DNA from: Escherichia virus TH37
Reading direction: 5' to 3' (one strand)
Length of the DNA: 53,453 nt
Sequence record: MT446409.1
Shown: positions 1 to 53,453 of the stretch, in pieces
Layout of the letters: every line of letters starts with the position of its first letter
Numbering within the stretch: position 1 is the stretch's first letter
Made by a program: the position numbers and the translations under genes
The notes under the pieces: model-generated
Told to the model about the DNA's origin: nothing
What the model saw: the letters and a program-made list of their open reading frames with translations, nothing else
The model's database searches: none

Positions 1-543
1 AGATATTGAGTACCAGAATATTGAGCATCTAAGCAAAAGCCTAAACGAGTATCGCATTCACCCGTTGTCTCAACCTTTAACCAATCCAAAGCCAGACGAA
101 CATAAGTGAATGGCGTAGAAGGACGTTCAGCTTTAGGCATGTTCATCATGCGAGCAAGTGAACCAGCTGGATTCTGAGCAACATAAGTTAAACGCTTAGC
201 AGAAGTCCAGTCTCCACCGGAAATATCTTCCAGCTCTGCCATAAACATGTTGTATGCAATGGTAGTAGAACCATCTTCGTTAAACTTCTTAACGATGTTC
301 TCAACATTGTGAGAATACAAGCAACGAGCAAAGTCAGATGATTGTGGGTTAGGACCAGCACATGCTACATGGTACAGACGACCACGGTTATCAGCAAAGT
401 AGTCAGAGAACAGAGTGTCCTGACCAACCATTGCTACAGCATTGTTCCAAACATGGAGTTCAGTCTGGATTGCTTCTGGCATCTGCAAGCCACCATAAGT
501 ACGTTGTTCAATCATAGACTGGATGATGCGAACCATCTCAGTC
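1..543. repeat. Direct repeat of window end 52911-53453 (wrap-around of circular or terminally redundant genome)
   Basis: Positions 115-543 identical to 53025-53453; positions 1-114 differ at about 11 sites from 52911-53024. Confidence 0.9.
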
Positions 544-1217
544 TCCACATGGTACTCAGTATCTTGCAGGAATTCGATTGCAGCTTTCAGAGTCTTGGAT
601 GGCTTAACTTTGCCACCTTTAACGAAAGGCTTGCGACGAGATTCAGTTGTTACACGCTCAGTGAATGGAACTGAGGTATCTTTGGTTGTAACCAGTTCAA
701 CCCATGCGTCAGTCATCTGGAACGATTTGTCCTCGTTCATGGTGATGAAGCCAAAGTGCTTAGCTAAACCAATGAGGTTGATAGCTGGGTCAACATAGTG
801 CATTGACTTTAAGTCGTTGTTGTAACGGTTGGCATCAGCAATAGAAGAAGAAGCCAGCTCAACCATTGCAATGGCTGGGACAACATCATCACGAGTGAAT
901 GAGGTCATCATCTTGAAGATTGCGAGAGCAGCAATAGCACAGGTCTGAGGCTGCATATAGTTCTGTTTCTCTTTGGCACGGTATACCAGAGCCGTGATAG
1001 CAGGGACAACGGATTTGATAGTTTGAGTTGAGATAGTTGTCATTTTGCGAGTCTCCAAGTTAGTTTCGGTTTTAGTTTCGGATTGTGTAGCAGCAGTGAT
1101 TTCGTTAACCATTTGGTTGCAACGGTCCATCGTATCAAGCACGTCTTTCCAACCGTGGCCTTCTTCTTTTAAGCGAGCGCCATCAGCAGCCAGTGCACGA
1201 TATTCTTCATTAGTCAT
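1..1217 (-). CDS. T7-like single-subunit RNA polymerase, N-terminal part (gene runs off the window start; continues at 52013-53453 if the genome is circular)
   Basis: Minus-strand frame open from 1289 to 1; contains ...FADNRGRLYHVACAGPNPQ matching T7 RNAP FPYNMDWRGRVYAV; ATG at 1217 has GGAGA 5 nt upstream (alternative ATG at 1044); motif A-like LDAQYSGTQYL at window edge. Confidence 0.8.
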   Translation of the reverse strand, partial: MTNEEYRALAADGARLKEEGHGWKDVLDTMDRCNQMVNEITAATQSETKTETNLETRKMTTISTQTIKSVVPAITALVYRAKEKQNYMQPQTCAIAALAIFKMMTSFTRDDVVPAIAMVELASSSIADANRYNNDLKSMHYVDPAINLIGLAKHFGFITMNEDKSFQMTDAWVELVTTKDTSVPFTERVTTESRRKPFVKGGKVKPSKTLKAAIEFLQDTEYHVETEMVRIIQSMIEQRTYGGLQMPEAIQTELHVWNNAVAMVGQDTLFSDYFADNRGRLYHVACAGPNPQSSDFARCLYSHNVENIVKKFNEDGSTTIAYNMFMAELEDISGGDWTSAKRLTYVAQNPAGSLARMMNMPKAERPSTPFTYVRLALDWLKVETTGECDTRLGFCLDAQYSGTQY

Positions 1218-1279
1218 GATAGTCTCCAATTGATTATGATTTAACTGAAACGGATTAGACTTGCGTAGCCTATTCATAA

Positions 1280-1295
1280 TCACAACCAACTAATG
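1280..1295 (-). promoter_or_regulatory. Conserved phage promoter-like motif (gene-sense CATTAGTTGGTTGTGA), copy 1, 63 nt upstream of RNAP start
   Basis: One of 8 intergenic copies of a 16-mer, plus-strand consensus TCACATCCAACTAATG, all in the same orientation. Confidence 0.5.
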
Positions 1296-1824
1296 GTGAG
1301 ACTAGCTCATTACAACAGCGTGCTCTGATTGCCCTTGACCTTGACCCACTACCTAACTTGGTGTTGTTTGAAAGCCGATAGGCTGTAGAAAAAGTTGGGG
1401 TAGGGACCGTATTTAAGTCCGATAGGACGTTGGGCTTCCCCTCCCCGCCACCTCAAAAATAAAAAATAATATTAGGCGAACAAAGTGAGCAATTGCCACA
1501 ATTCTAGTCTCATTAATATTGTAGCAATTCGAGTCTCATTAATTCCGTAACAATATTTAAATTAAAAAAAAATTATATAAAAATTTTTATAACATAGTCG
1601 GACTTCTGTTCGAACAAATTCCGGCTAGATACAGCTGACCGACCATTTACCATTTGGTTTTGAACTTTACGCATTCCTAATATTACTCTAATATTGTAGC
1701 AATATTGGGAATAAGTAATATTGAAAACTTACTTATTTTATTCTAGCTCAAAGAGAAACGACGCTAACGCATCGAATCTCTTCTCACATATTAACTGACA
1801 AACGTCAGCCTTCACCATATCCAA

Positions 1825-2943
1825 TCATAATTCAAATCCACCCAGAGCATTGGTATCAACTTCGGAGTCAATTTGCCCAACCAGGTAGGAACTAATCTCC
1901 GTTTCCTGTGGAGCAACTTGTACAGCATCCGAATTCAACCATGCGTTAATCCATGGAATAGGATTCGTAGCACCTTTGAATGGGGCATCCAATCCAACTG
2001 CTTGCATACGAATATTCGTGATATATTCGACATATCCGCACAGAATTTGCTTGTTTAAGCCAATCATGGAGCCATCTTTGAACAGATAATCGGCCCAATC
2101 TTTCTCTTGTTGGGCAGCATCTTCGAACAATTTCTGGCATTCTTCGCGGCATTCTTGGGCAATTTCACCCATTTCTGGGTCATCTTTGCCACTCACCAGG
2201 ATATTCAACATGTGCTGAGTTCCAGTCAAATGGAGTGCTTCATCTCGTGCAATCAGTCGAATAATCTTGGCATTTCCTTCCATTAACTTGCGTTCAGCGA
2301 AGGCAAATGAGCAAGCAAAGCTAACATAGAAGCGAATTGCTTCAAGTGCGTTGATAGACATGAGGCATAAATAGAGCTTCTTCTTCAACTCACGAAGACT
2401 GATTTCATGACCAGCATGGTTCCCTTCTCCGAACAACTGCCATAATGCGGTTAGTTCTTGAAGCTCGTCATAATATTGGGAGATGCCAATTGCTCGTGCT
2501 TTGATATGCTCGTTAGTTACGATTTCATCAAAGATAATGCTTGGGTCTGTAACAATATTACGAATGATGTGGGTGTAAGAACGTGAATGGATAGTCTCGG
2601 AGAAAGACCAAGTTTCAATCCAAGTTTCAAGCTCAGGAATGCTCACAATTGGAAGCAAAACTGTGTTCGGTCCACGTCCTTGAATTGAGTCCAGAAGGAT
2701 TTGATATCGCAAATTACTGGTGAAAATGTGCTGTTCGTTTGCTGGAAGCTTCTGGTAATCAATACGGTCTTGTGAAACATCTACCTCTTCCGGTCTCCAG
2801 AAGAACGACAATTGTTTCTCAATCAACTTCTCAAATATGCCATACTTCTGCTGGTCATAGCGAGCAACGTTGACGTTCTGACCAAAGAACATTGGTTCTA
2901 ATAATTGGTTATTCTTGGTTTGTGAAAAGGTAGTGTAAGACAT
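1825..2943 (-). CDS. nrdB: Ribonucleotide reductase class Ia beta subunit (NrdB)
   Basis: 372 aa collinear with and near-identical to E. coli NrdB as recalled ([14 protein letters not shown]..., ...[21 protein letters not shown]). Confidence 0.95.
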
Positions 2944-2945
2944 TA

Positions 2946-3506
2946 TTATTTATTTCCTAAATACTTATAAAATTTATGTCCGCCATAAGTTCCTCTTCCA
3001 ACAACTCTTTTGAAATTACATTTCTCTGTAGCTGTGCAGAAGTGGGTGGCATCGGTTACATCCGGAGCATCCAACAATGCGAAGTTAATTGCTACATTCA
3101 TGGTGTCCCAAACCTGTTTTGATTCAGTCTTCCAATTTGTTTTAACTATGTTCTTCCATTGAGCATTCTTCTTCTTTGCTTCTCTTGTCCAAGCAAACTG
3201 GTTGCGTTGATAAACTACATCGCAAACGGTGTTAGCGAATGGCTTCCCGAATTTGATTCGATTACGGACGACATTAGCTACCAGAATCTTTCCATGTTTG
3301 CTTTCTCCACGAGCTTCAAACCAAATTACTTTGGCATAGCATTCTATATCTTTGCGTTGAGAAATAGATAGTTTCGGATTTCCATTTAAATAAGATTGAC
3401 TTGCAAATTCTGTAATAGTGGCGTTCACTGCCCCAGCCGAAGCTGGGACATTTGCGTGAAACAGACTCACCAACAGAAATGCAAGAACTTGTGCTGAGGG
3501 CATCAT
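2946..3506 (-). CDS. Endolysin, SleB/Hydrolase_2-type cell wall hydrolase with N-terminal signal or SAR sequence
   Basis: N-terminal hydrophobic leader [26 protein letters not shown]; WFEARGE and [13 protein letters not shown] motifs; adjacent to holin-like gene. Confidence 0.6.
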
Positions 3507-13604: not shown

Positions 13605-13646
13605 CTATTGAAATTAATACATGTTCAAATAATATTAAAGAGGAAT

Positions 13647-13664
13647 GCCGAGATAAATCCCGGC
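13647..13664 (-). terminator. Terminator-like hairpin downstream of tape measure gene
   Basis: GCCGGGAT/ATCTCGGC stem (1 mismatch) followed by T-rich tract on minus strand. Confidence 0.3.
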
Positions 13665-13670
13665 ACTTTC

Positions 13671-33413: not shown

Positions 33414-33686
33414 TTAATCCACTTGCAACATTGCAAGGCGGAAGTCATATCCAACTAATGCTTCGGACAGCTCTTCAATTGAAGTTGTTGCCGAGATTAA
33501 AGTTTGGAGGTTTTTGAATGTCTCATCGTTAAATGCTTGAGACTGTGGGTCAGACGAAGCGAACACCTCGCCCTTAATCTTTTCAAGGAACGCCATTACG
33601 GCGTCCTTTGCTGGAACTTCGGAATCAGCAGCAAACATATGGTGCTCTAATTCCTGCATATCGAAAATAGAATATACAGTTTGCAT
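33414..33686 (-). CDS. Hypothetical protein
   Basis: 90 aa co-oriented ORF. Confidence 0.3.
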   Translation of the reverse strand: MQTVYSIFDMQELEHHMFAADSEVPAKDAVMAFLEKIKGEVFASSDPQSQAFNDETFKNLQTLISATTSIEELSEALVGYDFRLAMLQVD

Positions 33687-41068: not shown

Positions 41069-41084
41069 TCACATCCAATTAATG
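41069..41084 (-). promoter_or_regulatory. Conserved phage promoter-like motif, copy 2
   Basis: Plus TCACATCCAATTAATG. Confidence 0.5.
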
Positions 41085-41114
41085 TGTCAGGACTGCTCTG
41101 ATTTAACAAACAAC

Positions 41115-43237: not shown

Positions 43238-43253
43238 TCAATTCCAACTAATG
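43238..43253 (-). promoter_or_regulatory. Conserved phage promoter-like motif, copy 3
   Basis: Plus TCAATTCCAACTAATG. Confidence 0.45.
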
Positions 43254-43323
43254 TTTCAGAATTATTCCAATATTCCAAACAAAAAGAATAATAAGAATAA
43301 ATTAAAATAAATGAAGAAAGTGC

Positions 43324-43378: not shown

Positions 43379-43394
43379 TCAAATCCCACTAATG
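43379..43394 (-). promoter_or_regulatory. Conserved phage promoter-like motif, copy 4
   Basis: Plus TCAAATCCCACTAATG. Confidence 0.45.
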
Positions 43395-43464
43395 TTTCAG
43401 ACTAAAGCCGAAGGCCAATGCGAGTACAAAACCCGCTTGGCACTTCGAAGAAACCCGCCTGGAA

Positions 43465-47315: not shown

Positions 47316-47331
47316 TCACATCCAACTAATT
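47316..47331 (-). promoter_or_regulatory. Conserved phage promoter-like motif, copy 5
   Basis: Plus TCACATCCAACTAATT. Confidence 0.5.
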
Positions 47332-47368
47332 GGATTATTCGGGTACACTCGTAAATGCACCCTGATAA

Positions 47369-47831: not shown

Positions 47832-47847
47832 TCACATTCAACTAATG
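47832..47847 (-). promoter_or_regulatory. Conserved phage promoter-like motif, copy 6
   Basis: Plus TCACATTCAACTAATG, ~15 nt upstream of macrodomain gene SD. Confidence 0.5.
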
Positions 47848-47888
47848 TTAGATTAATCAGGAACACTCAATGAATGCTCCTTGTTAAT

Positions 47889-50827: not shown

Positions 50828-51029
50828 ATATAGTATTCCTGTGTGTGCCGCCATCATGGACTTCCTAGTCTGGTGGGCGCGTTGCAATCCAGCAATAAAC
50901 CACACGTTTTTCACAGGCTATATATGTGACACATAAAGTGCCGAAAACTACAATGATTAGCTTGGAGACATAATCTCTCTAAAATCTGTCACAGAATTTC
51001 AGCAGAATTTACAGAGATTTGGTCTTATT

Positions 51030-51045
51030 CACATGCAACTAATGA
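51030..51045 (-). promoter_or_regulatory. Conserved phage promoter-like motif, copy 7
   Basis: Plus TCACATGCAACTAATG. Confidence 0.5.
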
Positions 51046-51229
51046 TAAATGGACATGCTTAATTGCAACCAATTCATCTGCCAAATAGACGAATTTAGTC
51101 ACAATCAAACATGCTCATTAATTACAGGTTTGCTCCTATCTTGGAATGTATTTGGCACATCAAGAAGTGGCGCAATAGGTACGGAAAACCGACCATGTAC
51201 AGCATAATAAAACTAATTAAATAAAGGGT

Positions 51230-51950
51230 TTTATCCCAATATTGTCACAATATTTACATGCGATGATAAAGCCTTCGCTTGGCTGGAAGCCAGTATTCAT
51301 GCGGGTTGCAAGAATATTGGGTGAATATTGATACATTTATTACATGCGAAATTGGCACAAATACTGTTACAAAATTAACATGCCAGATTGGTAGACGATT
51401 GTATCTTCGAGGTGATTAGTCCTCTAACAATTCTGCCACATTCTAACATGCCAATTTGTAGCAATATTTACATGCCATACTGTAGCAATATTGCCACAAT
51501 ATTTGTTGCTCAAAATCGGGGCGGCTTCTGCGTGAAAACGAGAGGCTTTGCTCCGACTCTTCTCTTCTTTCGAATTCTGATTGAAAGAAAGAAGCATGTC
51601 CAAAAGTTCCAATATTACAAAAGTTATCTCCCGGCTTGTGGGTGGGCCTTTATAATAGGAGATGAAGCAATATTGTCGCAATTGAACATGCTTTAGTTGA
51701 AGAACAGTTTCGAATGATAATCCTACTTCACACATGGTTGCTGGAACTTTGTCCGGCCAAAGACAGGGAGTTCAATGATTGCCACATCATTACAACGCTG
51801 TGTGTTTAGTTGACATGCTGAAATGTTTCTAGAATGATTTCAACATGACATGCGGAAGACTTCTCCGTATTCTGTTACTTCACATCCAACTAATGTCGAA
51901 TATTGAAACAATATTACATGCAGCAATATTGCTTGAATATTGGGAATTAA
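51230..51950. repeat. Dense array of short repeats (palindromic CAATATTG / GCAATATTGC and TTACATGC units) in non-coding region
   Basis: About 12 ACATGC copies and at least 10 AATATTG copies within ~900 bp. Confidence 0.6.
51881..51896 (-). promoter_or_regulatory. Conserved phage promoter-like motif, copy 8
   Basis: Plus TCACATCCAACTAATG (consensus copy). Confidence 0.5.
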
Positions 51951-52012
51951 AGGATTTAATTAATAAAGAATAAAGAAAGGGCCATCACCTTTCGATGACA
52001 GCCCTGTTTCTC

Positions 52013-53453
52013 TTATTGACAGAAGTAGTAAGCGTGTTCGCTCATCAGAAGCTCTTCAGTAACAATGTTCTCATGGTACATGTTGATGCCACCAAGTTGC
52101 TTAGACAGAGATTCAAACTGATTATTGTGAACAAAGATTTCAACATAAGCAGAACGAATTACTTCCATCATTTTAGGAGCATCAGCTAAGCAGCAACGGA
52201 AACAATCGTGAATTGAAGTAAAGCCACGAAGACCAGCTTCTTTAGCTTTGACTGCAACAGTACGAGCAACCAATGCGTCAATACCTTGAATGTAGTTAAC
52301 AACGAAGGTACGCTTGAATTCTTCTTTAGTTGGGTTGGACTCACGAATGGTCCAAGGCTTATTCTCCTGAATCTGACCAAAGATAACACGAGTTTGAGAG
52401 TCAACACGAATGCTGAATGCCTCACAGATTTCACGAGATGGGAAGCAAGGCTTCATTACAACCTGACCATCAGTGTGACGATATGTGATGTACTCTTTAC
52501 CAAGTTCAACACAACGATTGTATGCAGCATCAGCAGCTTTCTCGATGAACATGTTAATCTTAGCACCCAATGCGTTATGGATTGCTTCTACACAAAGTTC
52601 AGCAAATGCTTCTGCTTTCTCAACAGGAATCTGGAGAGATGCTGTCATGTATGCAATGAAGTCAGAAGAACCAGTTAATGCAGCTTTACCACCACCATAT
52701 TGGATAGCCATGTATGGAGTTTTGATAAACTTACGACCAGCTTTCGGATTCAAGAATTCATCCATGATTTCAGCAGATGGTTTCATTGAAGAACGGTCAA
52801 GCAACTTCAACAGTTCACGAAGAGATAACTGGTATGGGTCAGATGCTTTAGTTGATGAATCAACCAGACCTGTTGCACGAGCCATCTCCATGTTACCAGC
52901 AATGAATGCCAGATATTGAGTACCAGAACATTTAGCATCTAAGCCAAAGCCTACACGAGAATCGCATTCACCTGTAGTCTCAAACTTGAACCAATCCAGA
53001 GCCAGACGAACATAAGTGAATGGCTTAGAAGGACGTTCAGCTTTAGGCATGTTCATCATGCGAGCAAGTGAACCAGCTGGATTCTGAGCAACATAAGTTA
53101 AACGCTTAGCAGAAGTCCAGTCTCCACCGGAAATATCTTCCAGCTCTGCCATAAACATGTTGTATGCAATGGTAGTAGAACCATCTTCGTTAAACTTCTT
53201 AACGATGTTCTCAACATTGTGAGAATACAAGCAACGAGCAAAGTCAGATGATTGTGGGTTAGGACCAGCACATGCTACATGGTACAGACGACCACGGTTA
53301 TCAGCAAAGTAGTCAGAGAACAGAGTGTCCTGACCAACCATTGCTACAGCATTGTTCCAAACATGGAGTTCAGTCTGGATTGCTTCTGGCATCTGCAAGC
53401 CACCATAAGTACGTTGTTCAATCATAGACTGGATGATGCGAACCATCTCAGTC
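52013..53453 (-). CDS. T7-like single-subunit RNA polymerase, C-terminal part (N-terminus beyond the window end; matches 1-1217 across the repeat)
   Basis: DNRGRLYHV, motif A-like GLDAKCSGTQYLAF, motif B-like KTPYMAIQYGGGK, motif C IHDCFRCC collinear with T7 RNAP DWRGRVYAV / DGSCSGIQHF / MTLAYGS / IHDSFGT. Confidence 0.85.
   Translation of the reverse strand, partial: TEMVRIIQSMIEQRTYGGLQMPEAIQTELHVWNNAVAMVGQDTLFSDYFADNRGRLYHVACAGPNPQSSDFARCLYSHNVENIVKKFNEDGSTTIAYNMFMAELEDISGGDWTSAKRLTYVAQNPAGSLARMMNMPKAERPSKPFTYVRLALDWFKFETTGECDSRVGFGLDAKCSGTQYLAFIAGNMEMARATGLVDSSTKASDPYQLSLRELLKLLDRSSMKPSAEIMDEFLNPKAGRKFIKTPYMAIQYGGGKAALTGSSDFIAYMTASLQIPVEKAEAFAELCVEAIHNALGAKINMFIEKAADAAYNRCVELGKEYITYRHTDGQVVMKPCFPSREICEAFSIRVDSQTRVIFGQIQENKPWTIRESNPTKEEFKRTFVVNYIQGIDALVARTVAVKAKEAGLRGFTSIHDCFRCCLADAPKMMEVIRSAYVEIFVHNNQFESLSKQLGGINMYHENIVTEELLMSEHAYYFCQ

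Follow-up and report, generated by a model that had tools for sequence, protein, structure and literature searches.

A compact T7-type RNA polymerase gene, split by the ends of a circular assembly, in a Carltongylesvirus genome

The 53,453-bp stretch of DNA analyzed here (the window) is almost certainly a complete genome of a Carltongylesvirus phage (Chaseviridae, Cleopatravirinae) that carries a compact T7-type RNA polymerase (RNAP) and was cut by circular assembly. The window is a circular assembly cut inside the RNAP gene, with an overlap of 543 bp left over at the ends, and the split gene encodes what is, by sequence and predicted structure, a short form of the T7-type single-subunit DNA-dependent RNA polymerases. 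Coordinates of the features discussed are collected in Table 1.

Window positions 1–543 repeat positions 52911–53453 in an ungapped alignment with 532 of the 543 bases identical, and all 11 mismatches are confined to positions 1–115. When 120 bases were compared with four relatives, the right-hand copy agreed at 114–117 of them, whereas the left-hand copy agreed at only 104–106. Because the mismatches are absent from the relatives and would change invariant or nearly invariant family residues near motif A (G395, K399, and C400), we regard the left end of the window as carrying assembly-edge errors. With the overlap removed, 52013–53453 followed by 544–1217 forms a minus-strand reading frame of 2115 nt, consisting of 704 codons and a TAA stop with no internal stops. 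A preliminary description of this DNA had proposed a split RNAP of about 705 residues once the ends were joined, and this is borne out: the 704-residue protein is recovered as a single tblastn piece, at 95–96% identity, in 12 phage records, and since these encode both parts uninterrupted, the join is real.

Direct terminal repeats, of about 3 kb on a linear, non-permuted genome, are a feature of the Chaseviridae (PMC12842549), and a repeat is present at both ends of the window, so that the 543 bp might be read as the true terminal repeat, with the RNAP gene split at the genome ends and made whole only after circularisation or in a concatemer. We consider this exceedingly unlikely, as the repeats of four relatives are 2.3–3.2 kb long and contain the entire RNAP gene. 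Mangalitsa has a direct terminal repeat of 3,234 bp (1–3234, determined with PhageTerm) that covers the RNAP gene; those of JL1 (2,995 bp) and Erwinia phage Y2 (2,608 bp) have both copies deposited, with the RNAP gene at both ends; and the 2,339 bp repeat of PYps23T, which also places the RNAP gene at both ends, was determined experimentally by restriction mapping, PCR, and direct sequencing (PMC8762354). The Y2, JL1, and Mangalitsa repeats all begin at a conserved GACTTAA(A)ATACGGTCCC, a sequence found at window coordinates 1403–1420 and not at 543, and the restriction of the mismatches to the first 115 bases, where they differ from all relatives, is the pattern of a contig edge. Because the long repeats of the relatives hold the whole RNAP gene, we interpret the 543 bp overlap as an assembler artefact within a collapsed longer terminal repeat and not as a physical genome end. 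Homology with the relatives predicts that the repeat here extends from about position 1420 to position 1 and continues from 52910 to about 51555, a length of ~2.8 kb, and with the RNAP gene inside it the virion genome would carry two copies of the polymerase.

Table 1. Positions of the RNAP gene, its translation signals, and associated sequence elements in the window.
Feature	Coordinates	Strand	Sequence	Remarks
Duplicate of 52911–53453	1–543	-		Overlap of the circularised contig; bases 1–115 with 11 errors unseen in relatives
RNAP gene, N-terminal part	544–1217	-		Residues 1–224 and 2 nt of codon 225; continues into 53453 after overlap removal
RNAP gene, C-terminal part	52013–53453	-		Residue 225 (codon split by the join) to 704; TAA stop at 52013–52015
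RNAP sequence motifs	within 52013–53453			DxRGR D276/R278/R280; motif A D397; motif B R465/K469/Y477; motif C H640/D641
58-codon in-frame extension	1044–1217	-	MTNEEY...LETRK	174-bp insertion between Shine-Dalgarno and ancestral ATG
Shine-Dalgarno for ATG 1217	1221–1229	-	TTGGAGACT	Upstream copy of a 9-bp direct repeat
Second repeat copy (1058–1050), 6-nt spacer, and ancestral ATG (1043–1041)	1041–1058	-	TTGGAGACT; MTTISTQ...	Would give the 646-residue form
Conserved end sequence	1403–1420	-	GGACTTAAATACGGTCCC	Left physical end in Y2, Mangalitsa, and JL1; predicted left end here
Promoter-like motif	1280–1296	-	CCATTAGTTGGTTGTGA	Ends 62 nt upstream of RNAP ATG 1217
Intrinsic-terminator-like hairpin	51978–52005	-		12-bp stem, T-rich tail; starts 8 nt after the RNAP stop
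Promoter-like motif	51880–51896	-	ACATTAGTTGGATGTGA (exact match)	GJ1 'putative phage promoter 1'
Promoter-like motif	51029–51045	-		GJ1 'promoter 2'
Promoter-like motif	47832–47848	-
Promoter-like motif	47316–47332	-		Downstream flank identical to GJ1 'promoter 3', upstream of the SSB gene
Promoter-like motif	43379–43395	-		GJ1 'promoter 4'
Promoter-like motif	43238–43254	-		GJ1 'promoter 5'
Promoter-like motif	41069–41085	-		GJ1 'promoter 7'
Promoter-like motif	33445–33461	-		Downstream of the DNA polymerase gene; GJ1 'promoter 8'

The joined protein matches PF00940 across residues 381–678 (score 68.3 bits, gathering threshold 22; E 7.3e-19) and PHROG 414, 'RNA polymerase' (E 1.5e-96), and 113 homologues were found, all but two of which have PF00940. 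A single-sequence phmmer search of the 704-residue protein against PDB sequences gave no match at E ≤ 0.01, and a family profile was therefore needed; with 62 members, this profile aligns to residues 317–850 of T7 RNAP (E 8e-19). The hhalign comparison with T7 RNAP has a probability of 98.3%, and it pairs T7 D421/R423/R425 with D276/R278/R280, D537 with D397, the motif B residues R627/K631/Y639 with R465/K469/Y477, and H811/D812 with H640/D641. Over residues 95–167 and 317–850, the T7 RNAP sequence used equals the PDB sequence except at three Cys-to-Ser positions. Residues paired with the T7 catalytic and NTP-binding sites are invariant in the 62 homologues, and the blocks in which they lie, FADNRGRLY (DxRGR), GLDAKCSGTQY (motif A), RKFIKTPYMAIQYGGG (motif B), and TSIHDCF (motif C), are invariant or nearly so among the 62 family members. 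Neither the family profile nor hhalign gave a residue-by-residue alignment of the N-terminal domain to T7, and no segment there was assigned to an AT-rich recognition loop or an intercalating hairpin.

For the structure we used a proxy, the cluster representative P0001, which is also 704 residues long and is 96% identical to the joined protein. The AlphaFold2 model of this proxy has a mean pLDDT of 87.8 and a pTM of 0.80, and the top 12 Foldseek matches are all T7 RNAP (E 1.5e-19, probability 1.0, TM 0.57, 14% identity); mitochondrial RNAPs come next, and the PDB matches range from TM 0.50 to 0.57 at a probability of 1.00. The segment aligned to the specificity-loop region of T7 RNAP is modelled as beta strands at residues 564–595. 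The protein is thus predicted, from alignment and model, to have the right-hand polymerase fold, arranged as in T7 RNAP along the whole chain, with a complete palm and fingers catalytic core and a specificity-loop region.

The preliminary description had this enzyme about 180 residues shorter than T7 RNAP, mainly through a reduced N-terminal domain, with the DxRGR, A, B, and C blocks retained, and it had named full-length alignment and structure prediction against T7 RNAP as the checks. The four blocks are all present, both checks lead to T7 RNAP (with the 96%-identical proxy standing in for the structure), and the measured difference is 179 residues (704 against 883). T7 Y317 aligns with residue 211 of the 704-residue protein, such that T7 residues 1–316 correspond to 210 residues with the N-terminal extension described below and to 152 in the conserved core, and by this alignment the N-terminal domain is about half the T7 size. 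It contributes approximately 60% of the shortening in a 704-residue form and approximately 70% in a 646-residue form, in agreement with the earlier estimate. The C-terminal polymerase part has 494 residues against 567 in T7, and the remaining shortening lies mainly in the thumb, which is ~39 residues shorter, and in the fingers, which are missing an insertion of ~33 residues (T7 residues 581–617). To our knowledge, the enzyme ranks among the shortest phage single-subunit RNAPs known.

Two organizations of the RNAP start are present among these phages. This phage, Mangalitsa, JL1, Bp10, SKA49, 2KOFFS, TH23, and TH26 have the 174-bp insertion, and the 58 codons that it adds are absent from phiEcoM-GJ1, ST32, and PYps23T, the PYps phages being without the extension. 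Two copies of TTGGAGACT (1229–1221 and 1058–1050) flank the insertion, which is in frame and has no stop, with the upstream copy sitting 3 nt before the ATG at 1217. Where the insertion is missing, as in phiEcoM-GJ1 and PYps23T, ...CAATCTTGGAGACTTACAAATG runs directly into MTTIT.... Annotated lengths differ correspondingly from record to record, with 704 residues in Mangalitsa, 648 in phiEcoM-GJ1, and 646 in ST32, for which the published table gives TGGAGACttacaaATG for the 646-residue RNAP (PMC6266442). Nearly all of the 113 homologues are 630–650 residues long, and the 704-residue form makes up only one 90% cluster. A tblastn search of phages with the extension recovers it only as a fusion to RNAP, in 12 Carltongylesvirus records; it is seen only in approximately ten E. 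coli and Shigella phages. It has no match in Pfam and only a weak match among the PHROGs (phrog_14095, of unknown function; E 0.003), and a search of a large protein database returned no matches, although the known 704-residue cluster was likewise not recovered there, which leaves that negative uninformative. The conserved enzyme is ~630–650 residues long, and the first 58 residues are a lineage-specific in-frame insertion.

A functional enzyme made solely as the 646-residue protein from the ATG at 1043, the 58 codons being an untranslated leader that is open by chance, is a reading that we find doubtful but quite conceivable. It would account for the intact ancestral Shine-Dalgarno and ATG, for the 630–650 residues of almost all homologues, for phiEcoM-GJ1 and ST32 being without the segment, and for the low AlphaFold2 confidence over it (pLDDT below 50 at residues 1–23 and 42–60 of the proxy model). 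The segment, however, is open and in frame in eight phages and has its own Shine-Dalgarno 3 nt before the ATG, and its variable columns in those eight phages fall mainly at third positions (4, 1, and 15 at codon positions 1, 2, and 3, respectively), a pattern that points to a frame that is translated and under purifying selection. Translation from 1217 must give the 704-residue fusion, because there is no stop before the core. We therefore favor a translated extension, and since the ancestral Shine-Dalgarno and the ATG at 1043 have been kept, both the 704-residue and the 646-residue forms may be made.

The RNAP gene is surrounded by short sequence elements, among them a 17-nt motif, ACATTAGTTGGATGTGA. 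With up to three mismatches allowed, nine copies occur in the window where 0.2 would be expected, a number that was not attained in any of 100 shuffles; every copy lies on the minus strand, which is the coding strand. Nine sites are labelled 'putative phage promoters' in the phiEcoM-GJ1 record (consensus (A)ACATTAGTTGGATGTGA(A)), and seven of the nine window copies coincide with these. An eighth, which ends 62 nt before the RNAP ATG, has counterparts in phiEcoM-GJ1, Mangalitsa, JL1, and PYps23T and is unannotated in the GJ1 record. In Erwinia phage Y2, which belongs to a different genus and has an RNAP ~71% identical, the core TTAGTTGGATGTGA ranks with the most frequently repeated 11-mers, again on the coding strand. 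We consider the 17-nt motif the likely cognate promoter of the RNAP, on the strength of its statistics and conservation a candidate one.

A different cis function for the motif, in packaging or terminal-repeat processing or as the binding site of a regulator, seems improbable to us. It would fit PYps23T, in which both ends of the 2339-bp repeat are at the same position inside two motif copies (between ...ATTAGTTGGA and YGTGAA), as well as the remark in the ICTV profile that the promoters of the Chaseviridae 'have not yet been identified' (PMC12842549). The Y2, JL1, and Mangalitsa repeats, however, end elsewhere, at a different conserved sequence, and the nine copies, all co-oriented with the genes, are spread over the early and middle regions and for the most part immediately precede gene blocks, an arrangement that fits a promoter better. 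Promoters of the T7 group are of similar length and single orientation, and the motif resembles them in both respects. Terminal repeats ending at the promoter motif were also considered as a general rule, as suggested by PYps23T; the rule fails, as Y2, JL1, and Mangalitsa end at the other sequence.

With the motif taken as a candidate promoter, the RNAP gene looks like a self-contained unit, composed of a motif copy, the gene, the terminator-like hairpin, and the next motif at 51896–51880. A sigma-70 scan of coordinates 1000–1900 found no convincing coding-strand promoter upstream of the RNAP gene, and the host promoter annotated in phiEcoM-GJ1 is poorly conserved in this phage. There is a palindrome cluster downstream of the RNAP gene.

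The unit genome has a length of 52,910 bp and a G+C content of 43.8%, within the 52–56 kb of dsDNA and the 39–52% G+C of the Chaseviridae and Carltongylesvirus, and it shares nucleotide similarity with the genus. The whole-genome BLAST comparison suggested in the preliminary description places it there: with megablast, three segments covering the window match Carltongylesvirus at 91–95% identity over 79–99% of each, the matches including phiEcoM-GJ1, the Yersinia PYps phages, and the TH phages. There is no record at ≥ 95% DNA identity in the megablast search of the collection, and because the ICTV species boundary is 95% nucleotide identity, this phage may represent a separate new species of the known genus. 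All of the long ORFs are on one strand, and the gene order is that of the phiEcoM-GJ1 annotation. No tRNA gene was found in the window; phiEcoM-GJ1 has one.

A T7-type replication and transcription program combined with a contractile-tail module in one genome had been described as an uncommon chimera, and Pfam searches confirm the presence of both gene sets. The contractile-tail module is represented by a DUF3383 protein (sheath family, a homologue of the GJ1 tail sheath) and Baseplate_J, found along with a spike N-terminal domain, the major capsid protein, and terminase. The T7-like replication genes are those for a DNA polymerase of family A, a 5′-3′ exonuclease, and a Toprim-DnaB primase/helicase, and the small subunit of ribonucleotide reductase (RNR) is encoded as well. 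Contractile-tail genes and a single-subunit RNAP thus occur together here, the virion morphology being known from the relatives alone. The combination itself is already known, and the genome is an ordinary one for its genus: phiEcoM-GJ1 was reported by Jamalludeen et al. in 2008 to be a myovirus whose RNA polymerase is podovirus-like. It is now the defining trait of the Chaseviridae, in which a contractile tail is paired with a single-subunit RNAP (PMC12842549), and the descriptions of ST32 (PMC6266442) and PP101 (PMC6989608) are further supporting literature.

The closest known systems are other members of the genus. phiEcoM-GJ1 gp01 and its counterparts in Mangalitsa, Bp10, TH26, ST32, and PYps23T are the same first gene inside the terminal repeat, and the Carltongylesvirus RNAPs, phiEcoM-GJ1 gp01 among them, have 95–96% protein identity to the window RNAP, the same flanking promoter-like motifs, and the same genome architecture. 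The 704-residue form, as here, occurs in Mangalitsa, Bp10, JL1, SKA49, 2KOFFS, and several TH phages.

T7 RNAP (gp1, 883 residues; PDB 1CEZ, 1QLN, and 3E2E) has the same overall fold, PF00940, and catalytic residues, and in both phages the gene lies early, the genome is co-oriented, and there are promoter-like sites that are short and conserved. The two enzymes are, however, only ~14–19% identical, and T7 H784 is replaced by an invariant glutamine (Q614) in the window RNAP family. T7 is moreover a podovirus whereas this family is composed of myoviruses, and the RNAP gene lies within a terminal repeat of ~2.5–3 kb in contrast to the short repeats of T7-like phages, such as the 184 bp of the Berlinvirus phages (PMC8762354).

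Phage N4 RNA polymerase II (PDB 6DT7) is another minimal T7-like RNAP, and the family profile matches it weakly around motif A (E 6e-7), although by the same profile the window RNAP is much closer to T7 RNAP (E 8e-19). N4 RNAPII is a heterodimer of two polypeptides whereas the window RNAP is one chain, the combined N4 subunits being similar to it in size. N4 RNAPII depends on a recruiting factor rather than on recognition of a duplex promoter.

By analogy with the T7-like phages we can propose how these elements might be used. The RNAP gene would be the first gene, inside the long direct terminal repeat, and would form its own unit, with the promoter-like motif upstream and the strong hairpin terminator downstream. 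Host polymerase would make the first RNAP transcripts, and the phage RNAP would then transcribe the remaining co-oriented genome from the ~17–20 nt motif (A)ACATTAGTTGGATGTGA(A), and positive feedback would come from the copy that precedes the RNAP gene by 62 nt. In the sub-lineage that includes this phage, the 174-bp insertion between the Shine-Dalgarno and the ancestral ATG would add 58 translated residues. A further proposal, which we rate as rather unlikely, is that the extension, as a translated segment under purifying selection, yields two isoforms with different regulation or partners, and that the motif does double duty in the generation of the terminal repeat.

As a discovery the finding is of small value, given that a myovirus with a T7-type RNAP has been known since 2008 in phiEcoM-GJ1, that the combination now defines the Chaseviridae, and that the family has many sequenced members. 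The Chaseviridae enzymes go unmentioned in two recent papers on the promoter specificity of phage single-subunit RNAPs and on new RNAPs. Its compactness (~646 residues) and the clear candidate promoter that accompanies it make the enzyme worth trying as an orthogonal transcription tool, in vitro or in vivo. For the family, the motif statistics and the conservation across genera point to one candidate promoter for the Chaseviridae, and the two isoforms or a role of the motif in repeat formation would, if true, be a new detail for a poorly studied enzyme.

Yersinia phage PYps23T (MW147598.1) has been deposited with a 2339-bp direct terminal repeat (coordinates 1..2339 and 52531..54869), which, like the repeats of the related phages Y2, JL1, and Mangalitsa, contains the entire T7-type RNA polymerase gene. 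Both ends of the PYps23T repeat correspond to copies of the 17-nt promoter-like motif, a candidate promoter for this polymerase, that are cut at an identical position (between ...ATTAGTTGGA and YGTGAA). In contrast, the conserved sequence GACTTAA(A)ATACGGTCCC, which is distinct from the motif, marks the start of the repeats in Y2, JL1, and Mangalitsa. PYps23T is thus either unlike these phages, or its ends have been mis-assigned at this short repeated motif.

Sequence features near the polymerase gene in the window
Feature	Coordinates	Strand
Equivalents of the PYps23T repeat-end motif copies	1280-1296; 51880-51896	
Two tandem copies of ATTAATGAGACT(C/A)GAATTG, upstream of the polymerase gene	1500-1590	minus
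AATATTG / CAATATT-dense gene-poor stretches, on both sides of the polymerase gene	51040-51950; 1515-1720	

In phiEcoM-GJ1, a Carltongylesvirus relative, the homologous tandem pair overlaps an annotated 'putative host sigma70 promoter', whereas in the TH37 pair both hexamers (−35 and −10) have decayed, and a sigma-70 promoter scan of window positions 1000-1900 gave no match on the minus strand. The phiEcoM-GJ1 'promoter 9', flanked by the tape-measure-like and baseplate hub genes (13605-13670 in the window), has no match in the window at ≤3 mismatches; TH37 has apparently lost this late promoter copy, or its sequence has diverged. The two phages also differ in that phiEcoM-GJ1 has a tRNA-Arg gene and ARAGORN finds no tRNA genes in the whole window; variable tRNA gene presence across Carltongylesvirus was recorded previously (PMC8762354).

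A Carltongylesvirus polymerase (94% identical) is also present in PP952070.1, a record that bears the name 'Staphylococcus phage Pel53' and gives Staphylococcus hyicus as the host. Because this host is implausible for an enterobacterial phage genus, the record is probably mislabelled or the sample contaminated.

The stretches flanking the polymerase gene contain 27 of the 42 AATATTG / CAATATT sites in the genome, many of them paired as AATATTG-N3-CAATATT palindromes, which often adjoin an ACATGC word. These repeats are iteron-like, and could be operator or origin sites.
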